Shown here: in pieces, positions 25,292-41,611 of the stretch | Layout: each line of letters starts with the position of its first letter | Numbering within the stretch: position 1 is the first letter of the stretch | Notes under the pieces: generated by a model | Told to the model about the DNA's origin: nothing | The model's input: only the letters and a program-made list of their open reading frames with translations | Database searches by the model: none | Assembly (NCBI GenBank): GCA_050031695.1 | Contig: JBNAIC010000029.1 | Span: 16,034 to 80,033, forward strand | Length of the DNA: 64,000 bases | Source of the DNA: Pleomorphochaeta sp. | GTDB taxonomy: Bacteria > Spirochaetota > Spirochaetia > Sphaerochaetales > Sphaerochaetaceae | Direction: 5' to 3' | Position numbers and translations under genes: made by a program

Positions 25292-25303
25292 TAGGGGATT
25301 TAA

Positions 25304-26143
25304 ATGAGTAAAAAAAATAATTTAAGCTTTAATATATTTGCAATTACTTTATTAATTGCCTTTTCAATACTATTAATTGCACCATTTATTTGGATGATAA
25401 GTGTTTCATTAGAAAGATATGCAAATTTACAGCCACCATTTCCACCAAGTTTGATTCCACAAGAACCATCCATGTTTAATTATAAGTTAGTAATTGAAAA
25501 TGGAACTTTATTTAAAGCCTATGCTAATTCGTTTATAATTGCATTTTTTACTGTTTTAACAACATTATTTACTGCTTTATTAGGTGGTTATGCATTTTCA
25601 AAGGGAACATTTAAAGGTAAAAAAATATTATTCTTTTTAGTTTTAGGGACTATGATGATACCTTTAGAAAGTCGATTAATACCAATGTATATGATGTTTA
25701 GTGCTTGGAATATGTCAAACACATTCTTTCCACTAGTTTTAACTATGCCACAATTAGGATTTGCTGTTTTATTATCAAAACAATATTTTGATAATTTACC
25801 AAATACTATTAGAGAAGCTGCATGGATTGATGGAGCTACAGAGTATAAAATATTTAATAAAATATTTTTACCATTAAGTGGTCCAATGATTGCTACCTTA
25901 ATTATTTTGATATTTATGGGATCTTGGAATGATTTCTTATGGCCATTAATTGTATTAACTAGCCAGAAGTTACAAACAATACCTATATATTTATCAAAAT
26001 TCTCACTAGAAGATGGAACTGCATATGCTGGACTTTCAATGGCATTGTCTGCTTCAAGTATTGTTCCAGTTATTATCGTATTCTTAATTTTCCAAAGATA
26101 TATTATAGAAAGTGTCGCTATGAGTGGCATTAAAGGCGAATAG
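25304..26143 (+). CDS. CUT1-family ABC transporter permease (UgpE/MalG-like)
   Basis: EAA loop EAAWIDGATEYKIFNKIFLPL. Six TM helices. Confidence 0.9.
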   Translation: MSKKNNLSFNIFAITLLIAFSILLIAPFIWMISVSLERYANLQPPFPPSLIPQEPSMFNYKLVIENGTLFKAYANSFIIAFFTVLTTLFTALLGGYAFSKGTFKGKKILFFLVLGTMMIPLESRLIPMYMMFSAWNMSNTFFPLVLTMPQLGFAVLLSKQYFDNLPNTIREAAWIDGATEYKIFNKIFLPLSGPMIATLIILIFMGSWNDFLWPLIVLTSQKLQTIPIYLSKFSLEDGTAYAGLSMALSASSIVPVIIVFLIFQRYIIESVAMSGIKGE

Positions 26144-26152
26144 GAGGTTCGT

Positions 26153-27493
26153 ATGAAAAAGAAGTTTTTAACTCTTTCAATGATATTATTAGTATTAATA
26201 TCTAATTCAATTTTCTCTTCAGGTAGTTCTGAAGAAAGTCAAACAGCAAAGGTTGAAAAAACACCTTTACGTATTCAATTAATCGGTTCTTTTAAAGAAG
26301 AAGACACAACAGATCCAATTAGTGGTAAAAAAATAGTTGGTGTTCATTACCTAGAAGAAGAATTTGAGAAACTTCATCCTGAAGTTGATGTTGAGTTTGT
26401 AATTATGGGTTGGGATAGTTATACACAAAAAACTATTGCTATGCTACAGAATAACGATTCTGACGTATATCAAGTTCCTGGTATCGCATCAATTGCAGCA
26501 ATGGGTTTATTAGAACCATTGACTCCATACATTGAAAAAGATAATTTTGATTTAAATAAATATATTGGTAACCAAGTAAAAGGTTGGGAAGCAATTGGAC
26601 CTAATGATGATGATTTAAGTATATATGGTTTACCTTTTATTGGTGATACAAGATATATTTCTTATGATAAAAAATTATTTGATGACTGGGGTGTAGAATA
26701 CTTATCACAATATCCAACTTTAGAAGAAATTGAAACAAAAGCAGCTATGATGACTGGTATTAACCCAAAAACTGGTGAACAAAACTATGGTCTTAGATAT
26801 TTCGGTGGTAGTTATTTAGCTGATACAGCTATGAATATTAGTGAAGGTTTAGGTAATACATGGGGTTCTGGTTTTTCTTGGGATGATATGAGTGTAAACT
26901 TTAATACTGACGAAATGGTTGCTGCTGTTGATTGGATGAGAGAAAATCTAAAATATTGCCCACCTGGAAATGTTTCAAGACAAGGTGATGAAAAACTTTA
27001 TACTCCTGACAATAATATTGCAATTAACTTAAGAGATGATCCAAAAAGTTTATCAAAAATTGAAGCTTTAAATTGGGATGATAGAATTGGTATTTCACAT
27101 CTTTTTGTTAATCCTGAATATAATATGGGTAATATGTTTGCAGGTTCTCCTTGTGCTATTGGTAGCTCATCTGAAGTTAAAGATATTGCTTGGGAATGGA
27201 TTAAATTCTCATCAAGTGAAACTTTCCAAAGATATTTCTGGGAAGAATATAGATCACTTCCAACAATTAATAGCGCTTTAGATTGGGATTCTATCAATGT
27301 AATTCCTCAAATTTCTGAAGTATTAAAAACTATGGAAAATTTATGGGTACCACGTTATCCATATAGAGCAAGTGAACCAAGATCAATTTTCGCTATTCAA
27401 GTTGAAAAAGCATTATTAGGTGAACAAACTCCAATGGAAGCAATGGATCAAGCTCAAAACGATACAGACGCTTGGATTCAACAACAAAGATAA
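26153..27493 (+). CDS. extracellular/periplasmic solute-binding protein, family 1 (sugar or glycerophosphodiester type)
   Basis: Signal peptide without a lipobox Cys (LISNSIFS-SGSS). 446 aa. Operon position and SD AGGAGG. Confidence 0.85.
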   Translation: MKKKFLTLSMILLVLISNSIFSSGSSEESQTAKVEKTPLRIQLIGSFKEEDTTDPISGKKIVGVHYLEEEFEKLHPEVDVEFVIMGWDSYTQKTIAMLQNNDSDVYQVPGIASIAAMGLLEPLTPYIEKDNFDLNKYIGNQVKGWEAIGPNDDDLSIYGLPFIGDTRYISYDKKLFDDWGVEYLSQYPTLEEIETKAAMMTGINPKTGEQNYGLRYFGGSYLADTAMNISEGLGNTWGSGFSWDDMSVNFNTDEMVAAVDWMRENLKYCPPGNVSRQGDEKLYTPDNNIAINLRDDPKSLSKIEALNWDDRIGISHLFVNPEYNMGNMFAGSPCAIGSSSEVKDIAWEWIKFSSSETFQRYFWEEYRSLPTINSALDWDSINVIPQISEVLKTMENLWVPRYPYRASEPRSIFAIQVEKALLGEQTPMEAMDQAQNDTDAWIQQQR

Positions 27494-27503
27494 TTAATTC
27501 AAT

Positions 27504-27535
27504 ATCTACCTATTTATTTAATTAAATAGGTAGAT
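27504..27535 (+). promoter_or_regulatory. intercistronic hairpin after the binding-protein gene
   Basis: Perfect 13-bp arms: ATCTACCTATTTA and TAAATAGGTAGAT with a 6-nt loop. No T-run follows, so it is more likely an mRNA-stabilising or attenuating hairpin than a full terminator. Confidence 0.5.
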
Positions 27536-27555
27536 GTCTTGATAGGGAAATATTA

Positions 27556-28266
27556 ATGCACTTATATATTATTAGACATGCAGATCCAAGCTATAATCCA
27601 GATGGATTAACTGAAAATGGATATAAAGAAAGTAAAGTTTTAGCTAACAGATTAAAAGATTATGGCGTAAATAAAATATATAGCTCAAATATGGTTAGAG
27701 CAAAATTAACAGCAGAACCTACATCAAAGCTATTAAATATTGATGTAAATATTCATAAATGGCTAATGGAACCTGAAGAATTAAAGATAGTTCAATCTAA
27801 TCAAGAATATTGTATTTGGGATACATATGGTGAAACAATTAGACAATATGATCAGATGCCAACAAAAAATGATTGGTATACAAAGCATCCATTCGATAAT
27901 CCGAGAGTAAAAGAAAGCTGGGAAAAATTTGTTGTAAATTGTGATGAGTTTTTATTATCTCTAGGTTATAAAAGAGTGAATGGTAGATTTGAAGTTATCA
28001 AAGAAAATAATGATAGAATTGCTATTTTCACTCATAATGGAACTTGTTTATATTTCTTATCGTATTTGTTAGAAATACCTTTACCATTAGTTTTCAGTGG
28101 TTTTTATTGTTGGCCATCTTCACTTACTGATATTTATTTTGACCAAAGATCTTCTAAATGGGCAATCCCTAGAGCTTTATGTGTTGCAGATACATCGCAT
28201 TTAGCTAGTGAAAAATTAAAGCCACAAGCAAGAGGTATGGGAGATTATTGTCCTGAGTATTATTAA
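27556..28266 (+). CDS. histidine phosphatase superfamily protein (PGM-like branch)
   Basis: LYIIRHADP (RH motif with catalytic His), SSNMVRAKLTAEP and a second His in IFTHNGT. Confidence 0.8.
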   Translation: MHLYIIRHADPSYNPDGLTENGYKESKVLANRLKDYGVNKIYSSNMVRAKLTAEPTSKLLNIDVNIHKWLMEPEELKIVQSNQEYCIWDTYGETIRQYDQMPTKNDWYTKHPFDNPRVKESWEKFVVNCDEFLLSLGYKRVNGRFEVIKENNDRIAIFTHNGTCLYFLSYLLEIPLPLVFSGFYCWPSSLTDIYFDQRSSKWAIPRALCVADTSHLASEKLKPQARGMGDYCPEYY

Positions 28267-28285
28267 TATTTTTGTATTGTGAATA

Positions 28286-28320
28286 AAAAGTTAAAGTTGT
28301 AATAACTTTAACTTTTTTTT
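28286..28320 (+). terminator. rho-independent terminator of the ABC/phosphatase operon
   Basis: AAAAGTTAAAGTT-gtaat-AACTTTAACTTTT followed by a T-run. Confidence 0.8.
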
Positions 28321-28498
28321 ATACTCTTCTAAAGCTAAAAAGAAATAGTGAGGTGAAATTAAATTAAGTTATAAAGAAATTATCCAAAAAGGTTGGATGC
28401 TTTTTTAATGAGATATTGATGTGATATAATACTAATAAGTATATAAAGATTATTGGTGAAATATTAATTATATACTTACATATATAGATTAGTTTTAA

Positions 28499-29155
28499 TT
28501 AATAAAATAGATTTGGATAATTTGTTGTAATATTAAATACTTCATTTCTTTTACATATCTCAAAATCTTTCAAATTATCTACTGTCCACGTAAAAATTGG
28601 AAAATTCAATTCTCTTAGTTTAAAAAATAAAGGTGAATCTAATAATAGATAATTTATATTAATTCCAAAAAGAATAATTTTTTTATATTCATTTACATAA
28701 TATTCAATATTGTCATAGTATTCTTCTTCAAAATTGATAATTATTCTAATGTTCTTATTAATTTTATTAATAAGTTTAGCACCTTCAAGATGAGTACCTG
28801 ATATAACACAATTATTAACAAAATCATTTTCTTCAATACAAGATATGATTTTTTCTATATATTTGTCATCTTTTATATCTATATTTAACTTAGTATTATA
28901 TTTTTTAGCAAAACTAATTGCTTGATCAAGTGTAATTAACTGTTCATCATAAATTTTTGCATCATTAAAATTAAGTGAATCTAGTTCAATGTTATTTATA
29001 AGATTATCGTGGGCCAAAAAACAAATGTTATCTAAGCTAACTCTAACATCAACTTCTATATATGAATGTTTAAAATTAATTGCACATAATAAGTATTCAA
29101 TAGAGTTAGCTTTAGTATTATTTGCACCGCTGTGAATTGTTAATTTGTTAATCAT
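28499..29155 (-). CDS. glycerophosphodiester phosphodiesterase (GDPD) family protein, cytosolic, divergent N-terminal motif
   Basis: IHSGAN...IEVDVRVSLDNICFLAHD aligns with UgpQ-type HRG...IEFD...LLHD. No signal peptide. SD GAGGA upstream. Confidence 0.7.
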   Translation of the reverse strand: MINKLTIHSGANNTKANSIEYLLCAINFKHSYIEVDVRVSLDNICFLAHDNLINNIELDSLNFNDAKIYDEQLITLDQAISFAKKYNTKLNIDIKDDKYIEKIISCIEENDFVNNCVISGTHLEGAKLINKINKNIRIIINFEEEYYDNIEYYVNEYKKIILFGININYLLLDSPLFFKLRELNFPIFTWTVDNLKDFEICKRNEVFNITTNYPNLFY

Positions 29156-29208
29156 TTGTATCCTCAGATTTATTATAAAAGATAAAAAGCAAATTTTAAA
29201 TAAAATCT

Positions 29209-30078
29209 TTAATTAAAAGTTTTTATTCTTTCAATTACATCATTATATGTACCTTTAAAAGGTCCAGGTGTCTCCATTTTTATTGAACATAAAGCAGCAG
29301 CATAATTTACAGAATCTTGAATTGAAGAGTCTAATCTTTTTGATAGATAAGCCGCGAAAGTTGTATCGCCTCTACCTGTTCTGCCACTTAAATTATTAGG
29401 ATTAAATGGTGCTGTGTAGAACTTACCATCACTGTAAATAAGAACTTCGGTATTGTGAGTAACCATAACTTCTCTTATCCCTTTGTCCCCTAAAATTTTA
29501 GCTGCTTTTTTTCTATCTTTTTCACCGGTTAATATTTCAGCTTCAGCTGCATCTGTTTTTAAATATGTAATATATTTACTATATTCATCAAGATTGTCCC
29601 AATTCTTAAATAATAAATCATTGTTTGTACTTGCTCTTAATAGTCCTTGAGCATCAATTGCAACTTCAGCTTTTTTTGAATAAAATTCAATAAAACTATC
29701 AGGTATTTCATCTTTGAACAAACCTGCAAGATGTACTATTTTTGCGTCAAAATCAATCATATTATCTATAGAGAAATTGGTTGCTCTTGAAAGTAATGTT
29801 ACTTTTCTTTTTTCTTTGTCAGCAGAAAAATAAATATTTTCAATACTTGTTGTTTTTTCTGAGTCAAGTCTTGTAACATCAACACCATTATCACTCATAA
29901 CCATTAAATCGCTTTCAGCTTCTTTGTTTGCAACTGTGATTACTTTTATATTCTTATTATTAGTAGTTGCAGCAATTGAAGAATAAATTACAGGTCCACC
30001 TAAAAATTTCTGAACACTATCTTTGTAAATCATTATATCTTTTGATACATGACCTATCATTACAATATCATAAACCAT
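29209..30078 (-). CDS. PfkB/ribokinase-family carbohydrate kinase
   Basis: LGGPVIYSS N-terminal block and C-terminal GRTGRGDTTFAAYL (the DTxGAGD-type motif). ATG 30078 is preceded by AGGAGAG. Confidence 0.85.
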   Translation of the reverse strand: MVYDIVMIGHVSKDIMIYKDSVQKFLGGPVIYSSIAATTNNKNIKVITVANKEAESDLMVMSDNGVDVTRLDSEKTTSIENIYFSADKEKRKVTLLSRATNFSIDNMIDFDAKIVHLAGLFKDEIPDSFIEFYSKKAEVAIDAQGLLRASTNNDLLFKNWDNLDEYSKYITYLKTDAAEAEILTGEKDRKKAAKILGDKGIREVMVTHNTEVLIYSDGKFYTAPFNPNNLSGRTGRGDTTFAAYLSKRLDSSIQDSVNYAAALCSIKMETPGPFKGTYNDVIERIKTFN

Positions 30079-30102
30079 TATAACTCTCCTAATCAAAATA
30101 TT

Positions 30103-30467: not shown

Positions 30468-31484
30468 ATGTCAAATAATATTACAATAAAAGATATTGCA
30501 GCTATTGCTGGAGTTAGTTATTCAACAGTATCTAGATGTTTAAATGATAGTCCTTTAGTTTCTGAAAAAACAAAATATAAAGTTAATAAAATTGCAAAAG
30601 AACTTGATTTTGAGTTTAATGCAAATGCAAGAGGTTTAATAACTTCTAAAGCTAATACAATTGCAATTGTTTTACCTGAGGGTTTTTCAAAAATTAATAT
30701 TAGTGCATATCATAATATATTATTAAATTCATTACGAACAAATTTAGAAAAAAGAGATGTAGATTTAATAGTAACTTATCAAATTAATCATTATACAAAT
30801 CATAATAATATTATTAGATTGATTAATAGAAAAAAAATTGATGGATTAATATTATTAATTGAAGATCCTAATGAGGAAACTATAGATTTTATTAAAAATA
30901 GGGATGTTCCATCTGTTTTTGTTCACTATCCTCCAATTGAAAAAACTGAAAATTTTGATATTGTTTATACAGACCATTATGAAGGTGGTAAAATAGTTGC
31001 TAAACATTTATTAAAAAAGGGACATAAACATTTTACTGTTCTAGCTGTTGATGATTACCATAAGGAATTTAAATTAAGGGAAACAGCTTTTTGTGACGAA
31101 ATTATAAAAAATGGTGGTACAATAAATAAATTATTTTGTTCCTTAGATTATTGGAGTGGAAAAGAATGTGTTGAATCTAATATAGATTCAATATTAAAAA
31201 CTACTGCTATATTTGGTTTAAATGATTTAATTGCTTTAGGAGCAATGAGAGCATTGAATAAATTAAATGTAAAAATCCCTCATGATATTTCTATAGTAGG
31301 TTATGATAATAGTGAATTTAGTGAATATGCAAATCCATCTCTTACTACTATACACCAACCAAGAGAAGAATTAGCTCTTTTTGCTGTTGACAAGTTATTT
31401 AGGCAAATAAATAATGAAGGATCATTAGATAACACTAATAAAATAAGTATCAAGCCTGTACTTATTGAAAGAGACTCTACTTAA
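30468..31484 (+). CDS. LacI-family transcriptional regulator (probable iol repressor)
   Basis: HTH IKDIAAIAGVSYSTVSRCLN plus a PBP-type effector domain. Sits directly upstream of the iol operon. Confidence 0.9.
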   Translation: MSNNITIKDIAAIAGVSYSTVSRCLNDSPLVSEKTKYKVNKIAKELDFEFNANARGLITSKANTIAIVLPEGFSKINISAYHNILLNSLRTNLEKRDVDLIVTYQINHYTNHNNIIRLINRKKIDGLILLIEDPNEETIDFIKNRDVPSVFVHYPPIEKTENFDIVYTDHYEGGKIVAKHLLKKGHKHFTVLAVDDYHKEFKLRETAFCDEIIKNGGTINKLFCSLDYWSGKECVESNIDSILKTTAIFGLNDLIALGAMRALNKLNVKIPHDISIVGYDNSEFSEYANPSLTTIHQPREELALFAVDKLFRQINNEGSLDNTNKISIKPVLIERDST

Positions 31485-31537: not shown

Positions 31538-31566
31538 TTGACTAATTTAATATATGTTTTTAAAGT
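31538..31566 (+). promoter_or_regulatory. promoter of the iol operon
   Basis: TTGACT (31538-31543), 17-nt spacer, TAAAGT (31561-31566). Confidence 0.55.
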
Positions 31567-31573
31567 ATAGTTA

Positions 31574-31587
31574 TGAAAACGTTTGCA
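31574..31587. promoter_or_regulatory. LacI-type operator 1, TGAAAACGTTTGCA
   Basis: Fits the LacI-family half-site pattern centred on CG. Starts 8 nt after the -10. Shares the 14-mer AAACGTTTGCAAAA with operator 2. Confidence 0.6.
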
Positions 31588-31629
31588 AAATAATAAATAA
31601 ATATCATTTATTTTTTATTTATATAAAAA

Positions 31630-31643
31630 TACAAACGTTTGCA
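31630..31643. promoter_or_regulatory. LacI-type operator 2, TACAAACGTTTGCA
   Basis: Contains the perfect 10-bp palindrome CAAACGTTTG. Lies 56 bp downstream of operator 1 and just upstream of the iolB SD. Confidence 0.6.
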
Positions 31644-31665
31644 AAAACAAATAGGAATTTATATT

Positions 31666-32472
31666 ATGATTGTTAAAAGAAACGAAGAATTTAAATGTGG
31701 GTATACCACCATTACTGAATTAAATGGCACAAATAAAGAAATGTTATTAGACTTTGGAATATTAAAATTAGATACAGATGATATTTTTGAATCTGATAGC
31801 AATTTAGAAAGAGCTTATTTATTAATAAGTGGAAAAATCGAATTTATTTATGAAGATAAAAAATATATTGCAGAAAGGTATTCTTGTTTTGATGAAGAAC
31901 CTATAGTTTTACATGTTTCTAAAGATGTAAAAATAAAAATTATTGCACTAAATGATAGTGAAATATGTATTGAAAGATGTCAAAACGAAACCATATTCCC
32001 TTCAAAGATATATAACAAAGATAATGTTAGGACAGATATTTTTGGTAAAGATGTTCTTAATAATACTTCAATTAGAAGTGTTAGAACTATTTTTGATGGT
32101 GAAATTGCACCATATTCTAATATGGTTATGGGTGAAGTTATAAATCATCCTGGTAAATTCTCAAGTTATCCACCTCACGATCATCCTCAACCTGAAATTT
32201 ATCATTATAAATTTTTCCCAAAACAAGGTTTTGGAGTTTCCATGTTAGACGATGATGCCTTTGTTGTAAAAGATGGTGATACTTCATTAATAAAACCAGA
32301 TACAACTCATTCTCAAGTTGCAGCTCCTGGGTACGCAATGTATTACATTTGGATGATTCCTCATTTAGAAGATGATAGATGGTTGCCAACTACAAGATAT
32401 TATAGGGATGAGCATAAATGGTTATTAGATAAAGATGTCAAAATCTGGCCAGAAAAAAAATTCGAAAAATAA
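31666..32472 (+). CDS. iolB: 5-deoxy-glucuronate isomerase
   Basis: Cupin-type KFSSYPPHDHPQPEIYHYKF...QGFG block typical of IolB. About 268 aa counting from ATG 31666. Confidence 0.85.
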   Translation: MIVKRNEEFKCGYTTITELNGTNKEMLLDFGILKLDTDDIFESDSNLERAYLLISGKIEFIYEDKKYIAERYSCFDEEPIVLHVSKDVKIKIIALNDSEICIERCQNETIFPSKIYNKDNVRTDIFGKDVLNNTSIRSVRTIFDGEIAPYSNMVMGEVINHPGKFSSYPPHDHPQPEIYHYKFFPKQGFGVSMLDDDAFVVKDGDTSLIKPDTTHSQVAAPGYAMYYIWMIPHLEDDRWLPTTRYYRDEHKWLLDKDVKIWPEKKFEK

Positions 32473-32496
32473 AAAGATAAATGGAGAAAGATAATT

Positions 32497-34377
32497 ATGA
32501 AATCTACAATAAAGTTAACAACAGCTCAGGCAATAGTTAAATTTTTAGATAATCAATATATAAATTTTGATAATAGAGAAGAAAAGTTTGTAAATGGTGT
32601 TTTTGGTATTTTCGGGCATGGTTGTGTAGTAGGGCTAGGAGAAGCTTTAGAAGAAAATAATCATAACTTAAAATTCTATAAAGGTTCTAATGAGCAAGGA
32701 ATGGCACATAGTGCTATCGCATATGCTAAACAAAATAATAGAAAAAAAATTATGGCAGTTACAACTTCAATAGGACCTGGGGCTATGAATTTAGTTACAG
32801 CAGCAGCCTTAGCTACAACTAATAGAATTCCAGTTTTATTATTACCTGGTGATACTTTTGCATGTAGACAACCAGATCCTGTTTTACAACAGTTAGAGCA
32901 GTTTAATGATTTTGGAATTACATCAAATGATGCCTTTAAACCAGTTTGTAGATATTTTGATAGAGTTAATAGACCTGAGCAAGTTATGACTGCACTACTT
33001 AATGCAATGAGAGTTTTAGTTTCTCCAGTTAATACAGGAGCGGTATGTTTAGCTTTACCTCAAGATGTTCAAGGTGAATCATATGATTATCCAATTGAAT
33101 TTTTTGAAAAAAGAATTCATTACATTAGTAGAGTTAGTGCTAATGAAGTTGTTGTTGATAAAGCTGTTGAATTAATAAAAGATAGTAAAAAACCCTTAAT
33201 GATTTGTGGGGGTGGTGTAAGATACAGTGAATGTGGCAGTGAATTTGCCTCTTTTGCAATGAAATATAATATTCCATTTGGTGAAACTCAAGCTGGAAAA
33301 AGTGCTGTTGAATTTGCACATCCTATGAATTTGGGCGGAATTGGTGTAACCGGTAATTCAGCTTCTAATAATATAGCAAAAGAAGCAGATTTAATTATTT
33401 CTGTTGGTTCTAGAATGTCTGATTTTACTACATCAAGTAAATGGTTGTTTGACTTTGATAAAGCTAAAATTATTTCTATAAATGTTAATGATTTTGATGC
33501 TATAAAAATGGACTCCTTGCCATTAGTTTGTGATGCAAAAAAAGGATTAGATGCTTTAGATTCAAAGCTAAGTAAATTGAACTATAAATCAAACTATAAA
33601 CAAGAAATACTAGTCGAAAAATTAAAATGGGATGAAGAAGTAAATAGATTATATACTACTGAATTAGGCCCAAATAATAGATATTCACAACTTAGAGCAC
33701 TTGGCATTATGAATGATGAGTTATTTGATAAAAACAGTATAGTTGTAGGTGCTTCAGGATCTCTTCCTGGTGATATGCAAAGAGTCTGGAGAGCATATGA
33801 AAGAAATACTTATCATATGGAATATGGTTATTCATGTATGGGATATGAAGTTAGTGGTGCTCTTGGAGTAAAATTAGCTAAAGAAGATGTAGAAGTTTAT
33901 TCAATGGTTGGAGATGCTTCTTTTGTAATGTTACATTCAGAGCTTCTTACTGCTTTAGAAAATAATATCAAAATTAATATTATGTTATTTGATAATAATG
34001 GTTTTGGTTGTATTGATAATCTTCAAAGATCTCAAGGAATTCCTAAATTTGGTTGTGAATTAGTTTATAGAGGAAAAGAATCTAATAGATTAGATTCTAC
34101 GGGTTCAAAATTGAAAGTTTCTTATGCAACTATTGCAAAAGGCTATGGCTGTGATGTTTGGACAGTTACTAATAGCGACGAATTAAAACAAGCTATAAAA
34201 GAATCAAAGAATAGTAATAAATCAACTCTTATTGATATAAAAGTTGATGAAGATTCTATGAGTGGCTCTTATGGAAGTTGGTGGAGAGTTGGTACTGCAG
34301 AAATTTCAGAAAAAGATAGTGTAGTACAAGCTTCAAATAATCTAAAAAAAGAAATTAAAAAAGTAAAACAATACTAA
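32497..34377 (+). CDS. iolD: 3D-(3,5/4)-trihydroxycyclohexane-1,2-dione acylhydrolase (decyclizing), ThDP-dependent
   Basis: N-terminus IKLTTAQAIVKFLDNQYI...FGIFGHGCVVGLGEALEE closely parallels Bacillus subtilis IolD. The ThDP motif GDASF...NNGFG is present. Confidence 0.93.
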   Translation: MKSTIKLTTAQAIVKFLDNQYINFDNREEKFVNGVFGIFGHGCVVGLGEALEENNHNLKFYKGSNEQGMAHSAIAYAKQNNRKKIMAVTTSIGPGAMNLVTAAALATTNRIPVLLLPGDTFACRQPDPVLQQLEQFNDFGITSNDAFKPVCRYFDRVNRPEQVMTALLNAMRVLVSPVNTGAVCLALPQDVQGESYDYPIEFFEKRIHYISRVSANEVVVDKAVELIKDSKKPLMICGGGVRYSECGSEFASFAMKYNIPFGETQAGKSAVEFAHPMNLGGIGVTGNSASNNIAKEADLIISVGSRMSDFTTSSKWLFDFDKAKIISINVNDFDAIKMDSLPLVCDAKKGLDALDSKLSKLNYKSNYKQEILVEKLKWDEEVNRLYTTELGPNNRYSQLRALGIMNDELFDKNSIVVGASGSLPGDMQRVWRAYERNTYHMEYGYSCMGYEVSGALGVKLAKEDVEVYSMVGDASFVMLHSELLTALENNIKINIMLFDNNGFGCIDNLQRSQGIPKFGCELVYRGKESNRLDSTGSKLKVSYATIAKGYGCDVWTVTNSDELKQAIKESKNSNKSTLIDIKVDEDSMSGSYGSWWRVGTAEISEKDSVVQASNNLKKEIKKVKQY

Positions 34378-34394
34378 AAGTTTGAGGTTTATAA

Positions 34395-35285
34395 ATGGAT
34401 AATAAGAAAGTTAAATTAGCAATTGCTCCAATAGCTTGGACAAATGATGATATGCCTGATTTAGGAAGTGAAAATACATTTGAACAATGTGTAAGTGAAA
34501 TGGCTTTAGCAGGTTTTAGAGGTAGTGAAGTTGGAAATAAATATCCAAAAAATCCAGAAGTTTTAAAACCAATGTTGGATTTAAGAGGAATTTCAATTTG
34601 TAATCAATGGTTCAGCTCATTTTTAACAACACAAAGTCTTGATGAAGTAATATCCGATTTTAATAAACAATTAGATTTTTTAGAGGCTGTGGGAGCTAAA
34701 TTAATTGGACCTGCTGAACAAGGTAATTCTATTCAAGGTAAAAATTTGAGTGTTTTCGATGAAAAACCAATCTTTAGTGATAAAGAATGGGAACTTGTAG
34801 CTAATGGGTTAAATACTCTTGGAAAAATTGCAAAAGATAGAGGTTTTAAACTTTGCTACCACCATCATATGGGTACAGGTTGTCAAACTATCAAAGAGAC
34901 TCAAAAATTAATGGATATGACAAATAAAGATTATGTTTATTTAACATTTGATTCAGGACATTTTGCTTTCTCTGGTGAAGATCCTGTTAAAGCTTTGTCT
35001 TTATTTATTGATAGAGTTGCTCATGTTCATTTAAAAGATATTCGTCAAGAAATTGTAAAACAAGTTAAAGAACAAAAATTAAGTTTTTTAGAAGCTGTTA
35101 GATTAGGTGCATTTACAATTCCTGGCGATGGTTCTATTGATTTTCCAGCCATTTTTAAAATTTTAGAAGAAAATGATTACCAAGGTTGGATGGTTGTAGA
35201 AGCTGAACAAGATCCAGCAAAAGCTAACCCATTAGAATATGCTATTAAAGCAAGAAAATATATTAGAGAAAATACAGGATTATAG
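34395..35285 (+). CDS. iolE: myo-inosose-2 dehydratase
   Basis: [45 protein letters not shown] is near-identical in pattern to the B. subtilis IolE N-terminus. Xylose-isomerase-like TIM barrel. Confidence 0.92.
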
Positions 35286-35295
35286 GAGAATTTTT

Positions 35296-36324
35296 ATGAA
35301 GAATATAAATATTGGAATCATTGGTGGAGGTAGAATTGGACAAGTTCATGCAAAAAGCATAACTAATTTAGTTCCTAACGCAACAATAGTTGCATTAGCT
35401 GATCCTTTTATGAGTGAAAAGTTAGAAACATGGGCAAAAAGTATTGGAATTAAAGAAACTTATAAAGATCCATATAAAATCATTAATCACGAAAATATTG
35501 AAGCTGTATTAATTTGTTCACCAACAGATACTCATACAGAGTTAATACAAGCAGCTGCAAAAGCTAAAAAACATATTTTCTGTGAAAAGCCTGTTGATAC
35601 AGATTTAAATAGAATTAACGAAACTATGAATGTAGTTAAAGAAAATGATGTTTTATTCCAAATTGGTTTTAATAGAAGATATGATCATAATCATAATGCT
35701 GTTAGAAATGCAGTAATAAATAATGAAGTTGGAGATGTTCATGTTATTAAAATTACATCAAGAGATCCTGAGCCACCAAATCCAGAATATGTAAAAGTTT
35801 CAGGTGGAATTTTCTTAGACATGATGATTCATGATTTCGACATGGTTAGATTTTTAAGTAATAGTGAAGTTGAAGAAGTATATGCTTCAGGTGCAGTTCT
35901 AATAGATCCAGAAATTGGAAAAGCTGGTGATGTTGATACAGCAATGGTAATGTTAACTATGAAAAATGGGTCATTAGCTATTATTGATAATTCAAGACAA
36001 GCTGTATATGGATATGATCAAAGAACAGAAGTGTTTGGATCAAAAGGTTGTGCTAAAGTTGAAAATGATAGAAATAGTTTAGTTGAAATTAGTTCAAAGA
36101 CAGGTGTTAAATCTGAGAAACCTTTATATTTCTTCTTAGATAGATATATTGATTCATATGCAAATGAAATAATTGAATTTATAGATGCAGTTCAAAGTGG
36201 AAAAGAAATTACTTGTGGAATAGACGATGCTATTAGACCTGTTGAAATTGCTCTTGCAGCAACTAAATCATTAAAAGAACATCGCCCTGTATTAATCAGT
36301 GAAATAACAAACGATATTAAATAA
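35296..36324 (+). CDS. iolG: Gfo/Idh/MocA oxidoreductase, probable myo-inositol 2-dehydrogenase
   Basis: IGIIGGGRIGQVHA Rossmann motif, CEKPV and GFNRRYD blocks, plus operon context. ATG 35296 is preceded by AGGAGA. The track N-extension overlaps iolE. Confidence 0.8.
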   Translation: MKNINIGIIGGGRIGQVHAKSITNLVPNATIVALADPFMSEKLETWAKSIGIKETYKDPYKIINHENIEAVLICSPTDTHTELIQAAAKAKKHIFCEKPVDTDLNRINETMNVVKENDVLFQIGFNRRYDHNHNAVRNAVINNEVGDVHVIKITSRDPEPPNPEYVKVSGGIFLDMMIHDFDMVRFLSNSEVEEVYASGAVLIDPEIGKAGDVDTAMVMLTMKNGSLAIIDNSRQAVYGYDQRTEVFGSKGCAKVENDRNSLVEISSKTGVKSEKPLYFFLDRYIDSYANEIIEFIDAVQSGKEITCGIDDAIRPVEIALAATKSLKEHRPVLISEITNDIK

Positions 36325-36349
36325 GAATAGAAAAGTAGGAGAATACAAT

Positions 36350-37369
36350 ATGAAAAAAGTAAAAGTAGGTGTTGCTGGATACGGTACAATTGGACAAAGA
36401 TTAGCTGACGGTGTAGCTCTTCAAGAAGATATGGAATTAGTAGGAGTTGCTGATGTTGCACCAACACTACCTGTTCAAGCATTATATGAAAAAGGTATGC
36501 CTTATAAACTATTTACTGCAGTACCTGAAAAAAAGCATCTATTAACAGATAGAGGTATTCCTGTAAGTGGTACATTAGAAGAATTAGTTCAACAAGTAGA
36601 TATTATGCTTGATGCAACCAATGCAGGTGTTGGGGCTATGAATAAAAAATTATATGAAAAATATAATACAAAAGCAATTTTCCAAGGTGGAGAAAAAAAT
36701 GATGTAGCAGATATTTTCTTCCATGGTTATGCTAACTATGAAAAAGGAATAGGTGCTGATTTTTTAAAGTTAACTTCATGTAATACAACAGGTTTAATAA
36801 GAGCTATCGATTCTATTGATAGAGCAGTTGGTGTTGAAAAAACAGCAATTACTATAATAAGAAGAGTTGCAGATCCAGGTGATTACCATAGAGGCTTAAC
36901 TAATGCTTTAGAAGTTGCTCCAGCTCCAAACCATCAAGCTTTAGATTTAATGACAATTATGCCACACATTGATGCTACAGGTATTTTAGTACACACACCT
37001 GTAACTCATGGACACATTATTACATCAGTAGTATCAACTAAAGATAAAATTAGTAAAGATGAATTATTAGAAATTTTTAATGCTCATCCAAGAATTCGTG
37101 TTGTAAGCTTAGAAGATGGCTTTAAAGGGAATGCTTCATTATTTAAATATGCTAGAGATTTAGGTCATCCAAGAGGTGATATGTATGAAATTGCAGTGTT
37201 TAAGGAGTCTATTGTAAATAGTGGTGATGATATTATGTTCGCAATTAATATTCCACAAGAAGCTGTAGTAATTCCTGAAAATATAGATGCAATTAGAGCA
37301 GCTCTTAAAATGCAAGATACTAGAGAAGAAGGAACAAAAGAAACTAATAAATATTTAGGAATGAAATAA
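36350..37369 (+). CDS. type II (archaeal-type) glyceraldehyde-3-phosphate dehydrogenase homologue
   Basis: VGVAGYGTIGQRLADG, AIFQGGEK, SCNTTGL (catalytic Cys), IIRRVADP, YEIAVFKESI and QEAVVIPENIDAIRA. These are collinear with archaeal GAPDH as I recall the Methanothermus sequence. SD AGGAGA upstream. Confidence 0.88.
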   Translation: MKKVKVGVAGYGTIGQRLADGVALQEDMELVGVADVAPTLPVQALYEKGMPYKLFTAVPEKKHLLTDRGIPVSGTLEELVQQVDIMLDATNAGVGAMNKKLYEKYNTKAIFQGGEKNDVADIFFHGYANYEKGIGADFLKLTSCNTTGLIRAIDSIDRAVGVEKTAITIIRRVADPGDYHRGLTNALEVAPAPNHQALDLMTIMPHIDATGILVHTPVTHGHIITSVVSTKDKISKDELLEIFNAHPRIRVVSLEDGFKGNASLFKYARDLGHPRGDMYEIAVFKESIVNSGDDIMFAINIPQEAVVIPENIDAIRAALKMQDTREEGTKETNKYLGMK

Positions 37370-38613
37370 TGAATAGTAATTTAGGGTTTAAATCTATTGA
37401 AGAAATAGATGTTAAAAATAAAAAAGTATTACTTAGATTAGATATTAATTCACCTATTGATGTGAATACTAAAAGAATTGTAAATACTAATAGAATTGAT
37501 AAATCCCTAAGAACTTTAAATTATTTAAAAGAAAATGGTGCAAAAGTTGCCATAATTGCTCATCAAGGAGATACTTTAGATTATCAAAATCTAATATCTC
37601 TGAGTGAGCATGCTAGTATATTATCAAAAAAAATGAATGTAAATGTTGATTATATTGATGATGTATGTGGACCTGCAGCAATTGAAAAAGTAAATAATTT
37701 AAAAAGTGGTGAATTTATTATTTTAGGTAATTTAAGATATTTAGGAGAAGAGTTATCTACATTTGAAAATAGTGTAAAGTTGAGTGATGAACAATTATTA
37801 AGTAATTATTTAGTTAGATCATTAACACCTCATTTTGATTTATATGTAAATGATGCATTTTCTGCAGCACATAGATTTGCTCCAAGTATGGTTGCTTTTC
37901 AACGAGTATTACCAAGTGCTGCTGGATATCTGTTCTTTGATGAAATTTCAACACTTAAAAAAATAAAAGATAATCCTATCTCTCCTTGTATTTTCGTTCT
38001 AGGTGGGGCAAAAATTTCTGATGCATTTTCTATGATGGAAGAAGTTTTAAGTAAAAATATTGCTGATAAAATTCTAACATGTGGTGTAACTGGAGAAGTT
38101 TTTCTACTTGCTAAAGGAATCTATCTTGGTAAAAAAGTTGAAGAATTTATAAAAGATAGAGGCTTAGAAAACTTTATAAAAGAAGCTAAAAAACTATTAG
38201 ATAAATATGAAGATAAAATAGTTGTTCCAAAAGATTTAGCCTATGAAGAAGATAATCAAAGAAAAGAGCTATTAGTAAATGGTGAACTTTTAGATTATTT
38301 ATATGCAGATATTGGTGAAAATACGATATCAACTTATAAAAAAATCATATTTGAAGCTAAAACCATTTTTGTAAATGGGCCAGCTGGAATGTATGAAAAT
38401 CCAATATTAGAAAACGGTACTAAAGAACTGCTTATAGCAATATCAAATTCAAATGGATTTAGTGTAGTAGGTGGTGGAGATAGTGTTAGTGCAACTACTA
38501 AATTTACTGATTTAAACAAAATGGATTACATCTGTACTGCAGGTGGAGCAATGGTTAGATATTTATCTGGTAAAAAATTACCCCTAATAACAGCAATGGA
38601 AAATTCAAAATAA
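37369..38613 (+). CDS. archaeal-type phosphoglycerate kinase homologue
   Basis: LLRLDINSPID, IIAHQG, LGNLRY, NDAFSAAHR, FVLGGAKISD and VVGGGDS blocks, collinear with archaeal PGK. Its start overlaps the GAPDH-like stop (TAATG). Confidence 0.85.
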   Translation: MNSNLGFKSIEEIDVKNKKVLLRLDINSPIDVNTKRIVNTNRIDKSLRTLNYLKENGAKVAIIAHQGDTLDYQNLISLSEHASILSKKMNVNVDYIDDVCGPAAIEKVNNLKSGEFIILGNLRYLGEELSTFENSVKLSDEQLLSNYLVRSLTPHFDLYVNDAFSAAHRFAPSMVAFQRVLPSAAGYLFFDEISTLKKIKDNPISPCIFVLGGAKISDAFSMMEEVLSKNIADKILTCGVTGEVFLLAKGIYLGKKVEEFIKDRGLENFIKEAKKLLDKYEDKIVVPKDLAYEEDNQRKELLVNGELLDYLYADIGENTISTYKKIIFEAKTIFVNGPAGMYENPILENGTKELLIAISNSNGFSVVGGGDSVSATTKFTDLNKMDYICTAGGAMVRYLSGKKLPLITAMENSK

Positions 38614-38636
38614 TAATTAAGATAAATAAACATTAA

Positions 38637-38668
38637 GGGGTGAGATTAATTTTTCACTCCTTTTTTTT
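38637..38668 (+). terminator. rho-independent terminator after the PGK-like gene
   Basis: GGGGTGA...TCACTCC 7-bp stem (one G-U pair), 10-nt loop, then T8. Confidence 0.7.
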
Positions 38669-38677
38669 GAGGTTAAA

Positions 38678-39919
38678 ATGAAATTTAAAGTTAACTATAA
38701 TAAAGAAATAGTAAATATAACAATAAAAGATGATACTAAAATTATTTCACCAAAAGATGTTCTTGTAAAAAATCAAGAAAGTATAATCACTAAAAGTTTA
38801 AATAATCCTATAAACAGTAAATCATTAAATGATTTTATATATAATAAAGATAAAATTTTAATAATAGTAAATGATGGAACACGCCCAACACCTACTGCAA
38901 AAGTTTTGGAAACTATTTTTCCAATAATAAAGAAAAAACAAATTACTATAATGATTGCTACAGGTGTCCATCGTATAGCAAATGAAAATGAATTGATTCA
39001 TATACTAGGAAATACATATGATAATTTAAAAGATAAAGTTATTTCTCATGAAGCAAGAAAAGCAGAAGATTTACAATATATTGGAACAAGTCGTAATGGT
39101 ACACCTTTAGAAATTAATAAAGAAGTATTAAATAATGAGGCCTTAATAGTAATTGGTAGTGTGGAACCACATTATTTTGCAGGATATACAGGTGGTAGAA
39201 AAGCTATAATGCCAGGTGTTGCGTCATTTAAATCTATAGAAGCAAATCATAAACATGCATTAGATTATAGAGCTAAAGCATTAAACCTAAAAGACAATCC
39301 AGTTCATTTAGATATGGTAGATGTATTATCTCTTTTAGGTGATAAACCGATATATTCAATTATGAGTGTTATGGATAGAAACCATAATATTTATGAAATT
39401 ACATCTGGTAATATAATTGATAGTTTTGATCAAGCAATAAAATATGCTAATGAAGTATTTACACAAGAAATAAATGAAAAATATGATATTGTAATAAGTG
39501 TAGCAACATCTCCTATGGATATAGATTTATATCAATCTCAAAAAGCTATAGATAATGGTAAATTAGCACTAAAAGATAATGGGATATTAATATTAGTGTC
39601 TGCTTGTTTAGAAGGAGTAGGGGAAAAAGCATTTTACGATTTATTAAAATCTTGTAGTACACCTGAAGAAGTTTTAGAAAATATTTCTAATAATTATAAA
39701 TTAGGGTACCATAAAGCTGGAAAAATGGCTGAAGTAATGACTTGGGCAAATATTTATGTAGTTAGCGAATTAGAGAATAAACTATGGGAAGATATTTTTA
39801 TTCAACCTTTTGGTTCTATTCAAGATGCAATAAATTGTGCAACTAAAATTAAAGGGAAAAATGCTACCTTTTGCTTACTTACAGATGGTTGTATTACTGT
39901 ACCTTTATTAACAAAATAG
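38678..39919 (+). CDS. LarA-family nickel-pincer-cofactor-dependent 2-hydroxyacid racemase/epimerase homologue (DUF2088)
   Basis: NDGTRPTP, ATGVHR and EPHYFAGYTGGRKAIMPGV (the GGRK Lys is the cofactor-tethering position in LarA), plus ANHKHAL. Confidence 0.85.
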   Translation: MKFKVNYNKEIVNITIKDDTKIISPKDVLVKNQESIITKSLNNPINSKSLNDFIYNKDKILIIVNDGTRPTPTAKVLETIFPIIKKKQITIMIATGVHRIANENELIHILGNTYDNLKDKVISHEARKAEDLQYIGTSRNGTPLEINKEVLNNEALIVIGSVEPHYFAGYTGGRKAIMPGVASFKSIEANHKHALDYRAKALNLKDNPVHLDMVDVLSLLGDKPIYSIMSVMDRNHNIYEITSGNIIDSFDQAIKYANEVFTQEINEKYDIVISVATSPMDIDLYQSQKAIDNGKLALKDNGILILVSACLEGVGEKAFYDLLKSCSTPEEVLENISNNYKLGYHKAGKMAEVMTWANIYVVSELENKLWEDIFIQPFGSIQDAINCATKIKGKNATFCLLTDGCITVPLLTK

Positions 39920-40159: not shown

Positions 40160-40819
40160 ATGGGCGTTATTACAATTTCAAGAAAAATGGGAAGTGAAGG
40201 AACTTATATTGGTAGAAAAGTTGCAAAAAGATTAAACATGGCTTATGCAGATAAAGCTTTTATTTCAAAAATTATGAGAGAGTATGGTTTTAGTGCATTT
40301 AAGGAAGTTTATGATGAAACACCTACATTTTGGGATAAGTTTTTAACAATTAGAGAGCAAACAATAGATTTCTTAGCTAAAACAGAACAAGCTATTGGTA
40401 AAGCTGATAATGTAGTAATTGTTGGTAGAGGTGGTTTTGGTATTTTTGAAAATTATAATGATGTATTAAATATTAGAACAAAGGCCCCATTAGAAATTAG
40501 AGTTAAGAGACAAATGGCTGAGCATGATATAAGTTATGAAGAAGCTTATACCCATGTTTTAGAAAATGATAAAGTACGTAAAAATTTTGTAGAGTCTGAT
40601 TTTAGATTTGATTATCAAAATACAAATAGTTTTGATATGATAATTAATACTGCAATTATTGATCCTGATAAATCAGTAGACTATATTTGTGAAGTATATG
40701 ATTCTTTGATAAAAAATGGTAGATCTAGCACATCAAAAAATTTAAAAGATTTAGAAGTTGATCCAATTTTATTAAAGTATGTTAGAGAAGAATTAGATAA
40801 AACTAAAGATGCTTTATAA
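40160..40819 (+). CDS. cytidylate-kinase-like family protein
   Basis: VITISRKMGSEGTYIGRKVAKRLNM and VIVGRGG blocks of the AAA/cytidylate-kinase-like family. SD GGAGG upstream. Confidence 0.72.
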   Translation: MGVITISRKMGSEGTYIGRKVAKRLNMAYADKAFISKIMREYGFSAFKEVYDETPTFWDKFLTIREQTIDFLAKTEQAIGKADNVVIVGRGGFGIFENYNDVLNIRTKAPLEIRVKRQMAEHDISYEEAYTHVLENDKVRKNFVESDFRFDYQNTNSFDMIINTAIIDPDKSVDYICEVYDSLIKNGRSSTSKNLKDLEVDPILLKYVREELDKTKDAL

Positions 40820-40831: not shown

Positions 40832-41611
40832 CTAAATGATGTTATTAACAAATAACATTATTGCAATATAATAAACACTTAATATCACAACAAAATTATA
40901 AATTTTTTGTGGTATTATTTTTATTAAATATATTGATGCTAATATTCCTAAAAATAAACCTGGAAGCATAGCTAATGTTATTTTTAAAGTTTCAAAAGTA
41001 ATATTTTTCCAAAAGAAAATAAAAATTATTACTTTAGTTATATTTAGTGAAAAAAAGAAAAGGGCAGTAGATCCTACAAATTCTTTTTTTTCTTTAGTTT
41101 GTCTAAAAAAATAAATACAAGTGATAGCACCAGCTGCATTTGAAACTGTAGTAATCCCAGATAACAATGATAAAAACAATGTAAATGGTTTATTTAAAGG
41201 CTTATTTATTTTATCTTCAATCCTACCACTTTTATCTTTAATTTTAGTAATTTCTCCAATTGTTATCATAATTACCATTAATAATAAAAAAAATGAGATA
41301 AAAATAGTGAATAATCTATCATCAATAAATGATGCAAAAAAACTTGTAATTATAATACCAATAATTGCTAATGGTACAAAATTAAAAACAGCTTTATAAT
41401 TAATTTGATTTCTGTATATGTATATTGGAATTATATCTCCTAGTAGGTAAATAGGGGCTAAAATTCCAATAACTTGTTTAGAAGGGATGATATTTAACAT
41501 TAAATACATACATATAACAGATAAATTTCTAAACCCTCCTTTATCTAAACCTAAAAAAAAGGCAGCTATTGTTAAGATGGTTATATTAGAAATAATTAAT
41601 TGATTTGCCAT
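40832..41611 (-). CDS. TauE/SafE-family anion exporter membrane protein
   Basis: 259 aa with about 8 TM helices and a central hydrophilic loop. GLDKGGF N-terminal motif typical of TauE. Confidence 0.7.
   Translation of the reverse strand: MANQLIISNITILTIAAFFLGLDKGGFRNLSVICMYLMLNIIPSKQVIGILAPIYLLGDIIPIYIYRNQINYKAVFNFVPLAIIGIIITSFFASFIDDRLFTIFISFFLLLMVIMITIGEITKIKDKSGRIEDKINKPLNKPFTLFLSLLSGITTVSNAAGAITCIYFFRQTKEKKEFVGSTALFFFSLNITKVIIFIFFWKNITFETLKITLAMLPGLFLGILASIYLIKIIPQKIYNFVVILSVYYIAIMLFVNNII

Follow-up and report, generated by a model that had tools for sequence, protein, structure and literature searches.

Comparative genomics points to a possible D-malate route of myo-inositol fermentation in a Pleomorphochaeta iol operon with archaeal-type GAPDH and phosphoglycerate kinase homologues

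A 64-kb stretch of contig JBNAIC010000029.1 from Pleomorphochaeta sp. (assembly GCA_050031695.1), referred to below as the window, carries an operon in which genes of myo-inositol catabolism, in the order iolB-iolD-iolE-iolG, are followed by genes for a homologue of archaeal-type (class II or type II) glyceraldehyde-3-phosphate (GAP) dehydrogenase (GAPDH) and a homologue of archaeal-type phosphoglycerate kinase (PGK), a terminator-like hairpin and a gene for a LarA homologue. This arrangement raises the question of how the product of the four Iol enzymes is broken down. In the Bacillus subtilis-type iol pathway, the same four upper enzymes are encoded in one inducible operon and make 2-deoxy-5-keto-D-gluconate (DKG), which undergoes C3+C3 cleavage after phosphorylation, and acetyl-CoA is reached via malonate semialdehyde. 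This canonical route nets 1 ATP and gives one pyruvate and one acetyl-CoA. The window operon has neither the IolC kinase, nor the IolJ or DUF2090 aldolase, nor IolA. When 54 window open reading frames (ORFs) of at least 110 aa were scanned against Pfam and NCBIfam models, none matched IolC, IolJ or IolA/MmsA, and the PfkB kinase encoded at 29209–30096 on the minus strand does not match the IolC model. The family models agree with all gene positions that a first-pass annotation had given for the iol-GAPDH-PGK-LarA operon, and the lack of iolC, iolJ and iolA that it had reported for the operon holds for the entire 64 kb.

We favour, with slightly more confidence than doubt, the interpretation that the operon encodes a variant of myo-inositol fermentation that proceeds via D-malate and dispenses with IolC, IolJ and IolA. 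Judged by homology, IolG, IolE, IolD and the IolB-like isomerase would convert myo-inositol to DKG, an unphosphorylated ketose. A transketolase would then move the ketol unit comprising C6 and C5 of DKG to a sugar-phosphate acceptor, and the C4 remainder would be (3R)-3-hydroxy-4-oxobutanoate, i.e. D-malate semialdehyde (OHC-CHOH-CH2-COO-). In many relatives this step would fall to a split transketolase encoded in the cluster, and here to an enzyme from elsewhere, such as the housekeeping transketolase. The GAPDH homologue would act as a phosphorylating dehydrogenase that converts D-malate semialdehyde and phosphate to D-malyl phosphate, from which the PGK homologue would form D-malate and ATP at the expense of ADP. 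The LarA homologue would then turn D-malate into L-malate, and a malic enzyme, encoded in the cluster in many relatives and here presumably elsewhere, would decarboxylate L-malate to pyruvate. In contrast to the B. subtilis-type pathway, cleavage would be C4+C2 and act on an unphosphorylated substrate, and the end product would be pyruvate formed via D- and L-malate.

With a carboxylate in place of a phosphate, DKG, D-malate semialdehyde, D-malyl phosphate and D-malate mimic xylulose-5-phosphate, GAP, 1,3-bisphosphoglycerate and 3-phosphoglycerate, respectively. Given the known structure of DKG and the homology of IolJ to fructose-bisphosphate aldolase, DKG read from C6 should have the D-threo 3',4' configuration, as in fructose, xylulose and transketolase donors. 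The C1–C4 fragment of DKG would then have the D configuration and the acid formed would be D-malate and not L-malate, and this would explain why the clusters either combine a racemase with a malic enzyme specific for L-malate or carry a dehydrogenase that oxidises D-malate. In the clusters, the GAPDH homologue is the sole aldehyde-oxidising enzyme; its constant partner, with a gene that often overlaps, is the PGK homologue, which argues for an acyl-phosphate intermediate and formation of ATP. According to our own bookkeeping, the C4 branch gives one ATP with no kinase investment, three C2 units give two triose phosphates at a cost of two ATP at phosphofructokinase, and each inositol would yield roughly 5/3 ATP and 5/3 pyruvate, not counting acetate formation.

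The proposal draws mainly on the gene neighbourhoods of relatives of the GAPDH homologue. A scan of one genome per species gave 544 matches. The survey comprised 82 sources (the window and 81 loci, cited by L numbers, whose GAPDH homologue is 72–93% identical to that of the window), and partner genes were sought within ~10 kb of the GAPDH homologue by tblastn; clustering of ORFs under-counts GC-rich loci owing to long antisense ORFs. A PGK homologue lies immediately downstream of the GAPDH homologue in 77/82 sources, the remainder being mostly contig ends. A LarA homologue is present in 53 sources and a short malic enzyme of ~400 aa in 26, of which 24 also have LarA. Split transketolases are represented by N-terminal subunits in 28 sources and C-terminal subunits in 27, and IolD, IolE, IolG and IolB were found in 31, 31, 29 and 28 sources, respectively, with IolB kept beside IolD in 25. 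Of the 31 sources with IolD, 16 also have a transketolase. The complete set is seen in Clostridium magnum (L029), where one co-directional operon encodes an ABC transporter, malic enzyme, the GAPDH-like and PGK-like proteins, the N- and C-terminal transketolase subunits, IolB, IolD, IolE, IolG and LarA, in this order. Loci L030, L046 and L061 are arranged in the same manner, but L030 has no malic enzyme. Among the 119 other ORFs of the ~28 iol loci, no aldehyde-dehydrogenase or class II aldolase family was found among the families with at least two ORF matches, and PfkB occurs twice. The first-pass annotation had considered the lower pathway to be either encoded elsewhere or replaced, and had suggested that bacterial type II GAPDH homologues might be surveyed for neighbouring iol genes. 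Such genes (iolBDEG) do lie nearby in ~30 sources from several phyla, and the recurrence of iolBDEG together with the GAPDH/PGK pair in ~30 genomes favours replacement over a location elsewhere.

The LarA homologue is predicted to be a nickel-pincer malate racemase that interconverts D-malate and L-malate. Its best family model is LarAH6 malate racemase, and LarAH5 gave 293 bits (cut-off 462); the score lies below the equivalog cut-off in either case. The best match in the PDB is Mar2 (6d6z). His108, His174, Lys184 and Arg75, the residues for catalysis and for binding of the nickel-pincer nucleotide, are kept in all 50 cluster LarA homologues, including that of the window, and all 50 have His-Lys at the positions of Trp358-Thr359 in Lactobacillus plantarum LarA (LarA1). 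His/Gln-Lys at these positions is the signature of malate racemases, which constitute the largest group of the LarA superfamily and can also epimerise tartrate (PMC11770544). The cluster proteins thus share His108, His174, Lys184 and the His-Lys signature with the malate racemases Mar1, Mar2 and LarAH62, for which no physiological source of D-malate is given in the papers describing them (PMC7583248, PMC11770544).

A tartrate dehydrogenase family protein (TIGR02089 521 bits, above cut-off) was found in 5/82 sources, and none of these five loci has LarA (hypergeometric p ~0.004, calculated by hand with phylogeny ignored). In C. ganghwense (L055), the gene lies between those for IolD and IolE. 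Members of this family act on tartrate and also perform oxidative decarboxylation of D-malate. Hence, the tartrate/D-malate dehydrogenase appears to be a non-orthologous replacement of LarA.

The GAPDH and PGK homologues are of archaeal type, as had been noted at first pass, since archaeal structures score highest for both. The best PDB matches of the GAPDH homologue are archaeal GAPDHs (~259 bits), and the best match of the PGK homologue is PGK of Pyrococcus horikoshii (279 bits versus 184 for the Thermotoga enzyme). The window GAPDH homologue itself is 100% identical to a protein of a Pleomorphochaeta sp. metagenome-assembled genome in the Spirochaetota. Its best 80 relatives out of the 544, with 72–93% identity, are spread over Spirochaetota, Atribacterota, Kiritimatiellia, Planctomycetota and many Bacillota. 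Bacillota carriers include C. magnum, which has two copies, C. pascui, C. peptidivorans, C. ganghwense and C. tanneri, and further Fonticella, Lucifera and Christensenellales. When representatives clustered at 50% identity were searched exhaustively, the full-length relatives had 62–67% identity and were followed, after an abrupt drop, by sequences of 44% identity or less, the latter being taken to be archaeal enzymes. By these comparisons, the pair represents a sharply separate bacterial subfamily that has spread horizontally. Within the cluster, conservation is highest for the GAPDH homologue: identity to the C. magnum counterparts is 75% for GAPDH, 59% for PGK, 48–60% for IolB, IolD, IolE and IolG, and 35% for LarA. 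In addition to members of this subfamily, three GAPDH-II-like proteins (P0129, P0132 and P0141), 39–44% identical to the window protein, have no catalytic cysteine. They show QPSLVG, NYNING or PIGMVLG in place of the SCNTT motif and may either be pseudoenzymes or catalyse a different reaction.

Comparison of 78 clade members with 34 outgroup sequences (S. solfataricus numbering) indicated that catalytic Cys139 in the SCNTT motif, His219 and Arg166/Arg167 are kept in 78/78, and His192 is kept as well in the GAPDH homologue. Three histidines are replaced in 78/78, namely His193 by Gln, His221 by Ile and His299 by Pro, with His present in 29–31/34 of the outgroup. Arg135 is replaced by Lys and Ser118 by Phe, also in 78/78; the archaeal-type residue at each of the five positions occurs in 27–32/34 outgroup sequences. 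The clade also shows several new invariant histidines. In PGK, Arg65, Arg122, Arg170 and His62 form a basic patch that binds the 3-phosphate (PMC7729029). The PGK homologue keeps Asp23, Asn25, Arg38, His62, Arg122 and Arg170, and Lys215, Asp218, Glu343 and the Gly-rich loops are conserved among the homologues. The equivalent of Arg65 is Asp or Ser in 75/75 homologues, versus Arg in the human and Thermotoga enzymes and Lys in Pyrococcus. The active sites of the pair thus seem to be remodelled with the catalytic residues intact, and the changes fit an altered anion pocket, short of proof. The split transketolases of the clusters (22/22, e.g. L029 12291–14107) have Asp in place of His461, a phosphate ligand, and Asn in place of Asp469, and keep Arg358, Arg520 and His473, as judged by comparison with E. 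coli TktA only.

These data bear on the possibility that the pair is a true GAPDH and PGK, be it housekeeping copies or an inducible pair that boosts triose-phosphate flux, which we regard as improbable. The scores of the two proteins are indeed close to or far above what the models for type II GAPDH (a second model, TIGR01546, gave 320 bits with a cut-off of 233) and PGK demand, the catalytic and most substrate-binding residues are kept, and the high conservation of the GAPDH homologue would be expected of a central enzyme. However, the pair lies in a catabolic operon under LacI/operator control, and the subfamily is patchily distributed over five phyla at 72–93% identity, with no more than 44% identity to archaeal GAPDH. 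C. magnum has two copies (L028 and L029). The only class I GAPDH detected in the fetched DNA by tblastn with E. coli GapA is encoded in L073 of a Saccharofermentanales metagenome-assembled genome (MAG) at 8596–9654 (53% identity to GapA; Gp_dh_N and Gp_dh_C), immediately upstream of the genes for the type II homologue, PGK-like protein, LarA and transketolase, so that this locus carries both types side by side. The neighbouring genes that recur encode malate racemase, malic enzyme, D-malate/tartrate dehydrogenase and transketolase rather than the products of tpi, gpm or eno, and the loss of the Arg65 equivalent from every PGK homologue and of three archaeal histidines from every GAPDH homologue points in the same direction. 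As for increased flux, no dihydroxyacetone phosphate is released without IolC and IolJ, and hence there would be none to process. The housekeeping and triose-flux alternative is weakened accordingly.

A different substrate for the pair had been proposed in the first-pass annotation. Its general idea, substrate-level phosphorylation by a dehydrogenase and an acyl-phosphate kinase, is supported, with the pair most likely acting on a compound other than GAP. The specific substrates fare worse, and that the pair oxidises either malonate semialdehyde (via malonyl phosphate to malonate and ATP) or C1 of 5-deoxyglucuronate is considered very unlikely. For the former, either the P-loop or PfkB kinase would have to phosphorylate DKG ahead of cleavage by a housekeeping class II aldolase, or a transaldolase would have to split DKG itself. 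In its favour, a Cytidylate_kin2-family kinase is encoded in the cluster in six sources and PfkB nearby in three, the window has no transketolase, and housekeeping class II aldolases have been proposed for the IolJ step in Dysosmobacter (PMC13311982). Yet malonate semialdehyde formation needs IolC and IolJ, both of which are absent, most clusters that combine iol and GAPDH-like genes have no kinase at all (e.g. L027, L029, L030 and L032), and neither malonate decarboxylase nor transaldolase recurs in the loci; C3+C3 cleavage of the transaldolase type was rejected on the latter ground. Oxidation of 5-deoxyglucuronate would render IolB superfluous, yet IolB is conserved (28 sources). Formation of malonate or 5-deoxyglucarate would also leave the LarA protein with its malate-racemase signature, malic enzyme, tartrate/D-malate dehydrogenase and split transketolase without a task.

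It may further be asked whether the pair is a general module for acidic 2-hydroxy-aldehydes whose main substrate in this organism is not derived from inositol. Candidates include tartrate semialdehyde formed from 5-keto-gluconate, tartronate semialdehyde released by an aldolase, and erythrose-4-phosphate. Some 50 of the 82 sources lack iol genes; in these, the pair often occurs with transketolase alone (12 sources), with a GarL/HpaI-type aldolase and an IolN-like hydrolase (L007 and L010) or with TRAP/ABC transporters. Tartrate dehydrogenase takes both tartrate and D-malate. Malate racemases are active on tartrate too (PMC11770544). In the window, however, the pair is joined to the iolBDEG operon through junctions of 25 nt and 1 nt behind the iol operators, and the sole aldehyde precursor made by the operon itself derives from DKG; for this organism, a main substrate from another source is thus unlikely. 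The reading with erythrose-4-phosphate and 4-phosphoerythronate was rejected on context, because the operon makes no phosphorylated intermediate and the malic enzyme and racemase signature point to malate.

For the subfamily at large, a broader reading that takes in substrates besides inositol stands at even chances. According to this, bacterial type II GAPDH and its partner PGK would be a neofunctionalised, horizontally mobile, non-glycolytic module that performs substrate-level phosphorylation on compounds mimicking GAP by means of a carboxylate, namely D-malate semialdehyde and probably tartrate semialdehyde. The aldehydes would be produced by cleavage of unphosphorylated keto-sugar acids with transketolase or, in some clusters, aldolase. 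Combined either with nickel-pincer malate racemase and malic enzyme or with D-malate dehydrogenase, it would amount to a widespread kinase-free 'shadow glycolysis' with natural D-malyl phosphate, used for inositol and other substrates by anaerobes of at least five phyla.

Two further types of surroundings were observed. In two spirochaete MAGs (L007, 1324–6915, and L010, 2127–9900), the pair follows genes for an Ldh_2-family dehydrogenase, an IolN-like hydrolase (157 bits, under its cut-off), proteins resembling fucose isomerase and URO-D/MtaA, and the GarL/HpaI-type aldolase; L010 additionally encodes an aldehyde:ferredoxin oxidoreductase. In these loci, the module seems to be fed by a different pathway. 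In the second C. magnum copy (L028) and in a Christensenellaceae locus (L020), the module stands beside a malic enzyme and a set of E1alpha-E1beta-E2-E3 genes resembling those of acetoin and 2-oxoacid dehydrogenases, which lies upstream of the GAPDH homologue.

Several points weigh against the D-malate route in the window. It was deduced by comparative genomics, i.e. from gene context and residues. Neither transketolase nor malic enzyme is encoded in the 64 kb, and the key cleavage step must therefore come from elsewhere in the genome; the same applies to 15 of the 31 IolD loci, mostly from spirochaetes, which have no adjacent transketolase. In 24/82 sources, neither LarA nor tartrate dehydrogenase is within reach, which is explained in some by a contig end. 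The genes for the PGK and LarA homologues are separated by the terminator-like hairpin, and the Cytidylate_kin2 P-loop kinase of the cluster has no role in the scheme. Finally, as Arg166/167 and His192 of GAPDH and Arg122, Arg170 and His62 of PGK are kept, the sequences are also compatible with GAP and 3-phosphoglycerate as substrates.

The nearest mechanistic relatives of the D-malate route are the sulfo-TK pathway of sulfoquinovose degradation and the apiose/apulose pathways, in which a split transketolase encoded in a catabolic cluster shortens a non-standard ketose by C2, feeds the pentose-phosphate pool and avoids an ATP-consuming kinase. In contrast to these, the donor here would be the keto acid DKG, the leftover aldehyde would be conserved for ATP formation by the GAPDH/PGK-like pair, and the transketolase is not encoded in the window cluster. 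With archaeal class II GAPDH and PGK, the pair shares the folds, catalytic residues and proposed chemistry, from aldehyde via acyl phosphate to acid and ATP, but it is located in a catabolic operon with malate-handling enzymes, and its proposed substrate has a carboxylate where GAP has a phosphate. For plants and Gluconobacter, it has been proposed that 5-keto-D-gluconate is cleaved by transketolase to give tartrate semialdehyde (PMC7970118). This is the same type of reaction on the 2-hydroxy analogue of DKG, and the C4 acid semialdehyde is then oxidised to a diacid, but by a non-phosphorylating semialdehyde dehydrogenase with no acyl phosphate and no gain of ATP.

A malyl phosphate/malate semialdehyde pair is also part of a synthetic pathway to 2,4-dihydroxybutyrate, in which a kinase is combined with a phosphorylating semialdehyde dehydrogenase (PMC5481828, PMC12104201) and for which no natural counterpart leading to this product exists, as stated in PMC5481828. 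The synthetic enzymes are derived from aspartate kinase and aspartate-semialdehyde dehydrogenase and work reductively on the C4 carboxyl of L-malate, whereas the window route would be natural and oxidative, concern the carboxyl beside the hydroxyl of D-malate and employ GAPDH and PGK folds. Published variants of inositol catabolism keep the phosphorylated C3+C3 cleavage, both with IolC-DUF2090 fusions (PMC9007349) and in the routes of Anaerostipes and Dysosmobacter, which run via 3-oxopropionate (PMC8355322; PMC13311982). No transketolase-dependent inositol route and no natural malyl phosphate were found in the full-text literature (subscription-only papers were outside the search), nor was any link of bacterial type II GAPDH to inositol, LarA or malate, or any pathway connecting inositol with LarA or D-malate; in the retrieved literature, malyl phosphate occurs in the engineered pathway only. 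The operon is thus rated as an inositol catabolism variant with neofunctionalised glycolytic paralogues, the upper half being the classical iol pathway.

If the proposal is correct, the operon represents a new lower branch of inositol catabolism, in which no ATP is spent before cleavage and ATP is gained from the C4 fragment. A kinase-free branch of this kind would suit fermenters of sediments, digesters and guts. Malyl phosphate would be a natural metabolite, formed by glycolytic enzymes that have clearly been adapted to an analogue of their substrate with a carboxylate, and the malate-racemase group of the LarA superfamily would gain a physiological source of D-malate and a role. The names 'type II GAPDH' and 'phosphoglycerate kinase' would be wrong for at least 544 species-representative matches, distorting metabolic reconstructions. 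The pathway is open to test, as the proteins are obtainable and cultured carriers are available in C. magnum, C. pascui and Lucifera butyrica.

The features of the locus are listed in Table 1.

Table 1. Features of the inositol operon and adjoining genes, with window coordinates and the model or evidence on which each assignment is based
Feature	Position	Strand	Basis
LacI-family regulator	30468..31484	+	Pfam LacI + Peripla_BP_3
Promoter-like site, TTGACT-17-TAAAGT	31538..31566	+	Consensus scan; candidate
Operator copy 1, AAACGTTTGCAAAA	31577..31590	+	Exact match
Operator copy 2, AAACGTTTGCAAAA	31633..31646	+	Exact match
IolB-like 5-deoxyglucuronate isomerase (KduI/IolB family)	31667..32472	+	PF04962 163 bits
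IolD, ring-opening thiamine diphosphate-dependent hydrolase	32497..34377	+	TIGR04377 903 bits, cut-off 715
IolE, inosose dehydratase	34395..35285	+	TIGR04379 414 bits, cut-off 290
IolG, inositol 2-dehydrogenase	35297..36324	+	TIGR04380 471 bits, cut-off 355
Archaeal-type (class II / type II) GAPDH homologue	36350..37369	+	NF003251 419 bits, cut-off 185
Archaeal-type PGK homologue	37369..38613	+	PF00162 349 bits
Terminator-like hairpin + T-run between PGK and LarA homologues	38635..38670	+	Stem-loop 38635-38662
LarA-superfamily homologue	38678..39919	+	Best NCBIfam model LarAH6 malate racemase, 391 bits, cut-off 500
Cytidylate_kin2-family P-loop kinase	40160..40819	+	PF13189 116 bits
TauE/SafE-family permease, convergent on cluster	40832..41611	-	PF01925

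The IolB-like protein scored 84 bits against the IolB equivalog TIGR04378 (cut-off 205). Its start was revised from the DNA to the ATG at 31667, which is the most likely one because the TTG at 31639 chosen by the ORF tool falls within the second operator. IolG starts at the ATG at 35297, which is preceded by AGGAG. With the revised starts, the intergenic gaps from iolB to the GAPDH homologue are 24, 17, 11 and 25 nt, and the GAPDH and PGK genes overlap by 1 nt.

The LacI-family protein, whose closest NCBIfam model is RbsR-like (222 bits, under its cut-off) and a homologue of which also borders the cluster in L001, L014 and L046, is the probable repressor of the operon. Binding of such a repressor to two CAAACGTTTG operators would make the operon inducible. 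The two operators reported at first pass were recovered before iolB as exact copies of AAACGTTTGCAAAA, the second ending 21 nt upstream of the likely iolB start, and there is no further exact copy in the 64 kb. With up to 2 mismatches, AAACGTTTGCAAAA has 4 matches in the window, and at least as many were obtained in 9/100 shuffles. The operator core CAAACGTTTGC is found upstream of iol genes in five related spirochaete loci (L002–L004, L032 and L048). The hairpin between the PGK and LarA homologues has an 11-bp stem with 4 GC pairs and a T8 tail that overlaps the LarA ribosome-binding site. The G+C content of the window is ~27%, and promoter-like and terminator-like sites are no commoner in the AT-rich region than in shuffles.

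The Cytidylate_kin2 kinase, overlooked at first pass, belongs to the cluster and is a feature of its spirochaete version. Its gene is located 3' of that for LarA in the window, between those for IolG and the GAPDH homologue in L001–L004, and between those for IolG and IolB in L014, a locus that also carries a transketolase; its closest structures are uncharacterised proteins. The TauE/SafE permease adjoins LarA in nine loci from spirochaetes and Alkalibaculum (the window, L002–L004, L006, L008, L050 and the Alkalibaculum loci L053 and L054) and is tentatively considered a cluster member and possible anion transporter.

A second sugar locus lies upstream at 21581–30096. It comprises genes for a GH63-like hydrolase and a GntR/LacI-hybrid regulator (minus strand), two CUT1 ABC permeases, a binding protein and a histidine phosphatase (plus strand), and a GDPD-like phosphodiesterase and the divergent PfkB kinase (minus strand). 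This locus may serve to take up and trim a solute that contains inositol or glycerate. A binding protein of 50% identity is encoded directly upstream of the GAPDH-like/iol operon in L076, and PfkB genes similar to that of the window are close to the cluster in L022 and L056.

Two regions, 1785–7197 and 20465–21442, hold genes characteristic of anaerobic fermenters, which encode XdhC-type and selenium-dependent YqeB molybdenum-hydroxylase maturation factors, L-serine ammonia-lyase, acetate kinase and carbamate kinase. Downstream of the operon, at 46639–48608, genes for a SerA-like D-2-hydroxyacid dehydrogenase (257 bits against the PGDH model, under its cut-off) and SerC are located after recO-recJ and are probably involved in serine biosynthesis, with a 2-hydroxyacid role as the less likely alternative; the SerA-like gene stays close to the cluster in relatives (L001–L004, L006 and L046). 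Pyruvate formate-lyase is encoded by two ORFs, one at 49400–51466 (688 aa, model positions 2–669 of 744) and the other, 14 nt downstream, at 51481–51723 (80 aa), which holds the glycyl-radical motif RVSGY and is followed by the gene for the PflA activase (51726–52484). The split may be genuine, with a pyruvate formate-lyase made of two pieces, or stem from a frameshift in the MAG.

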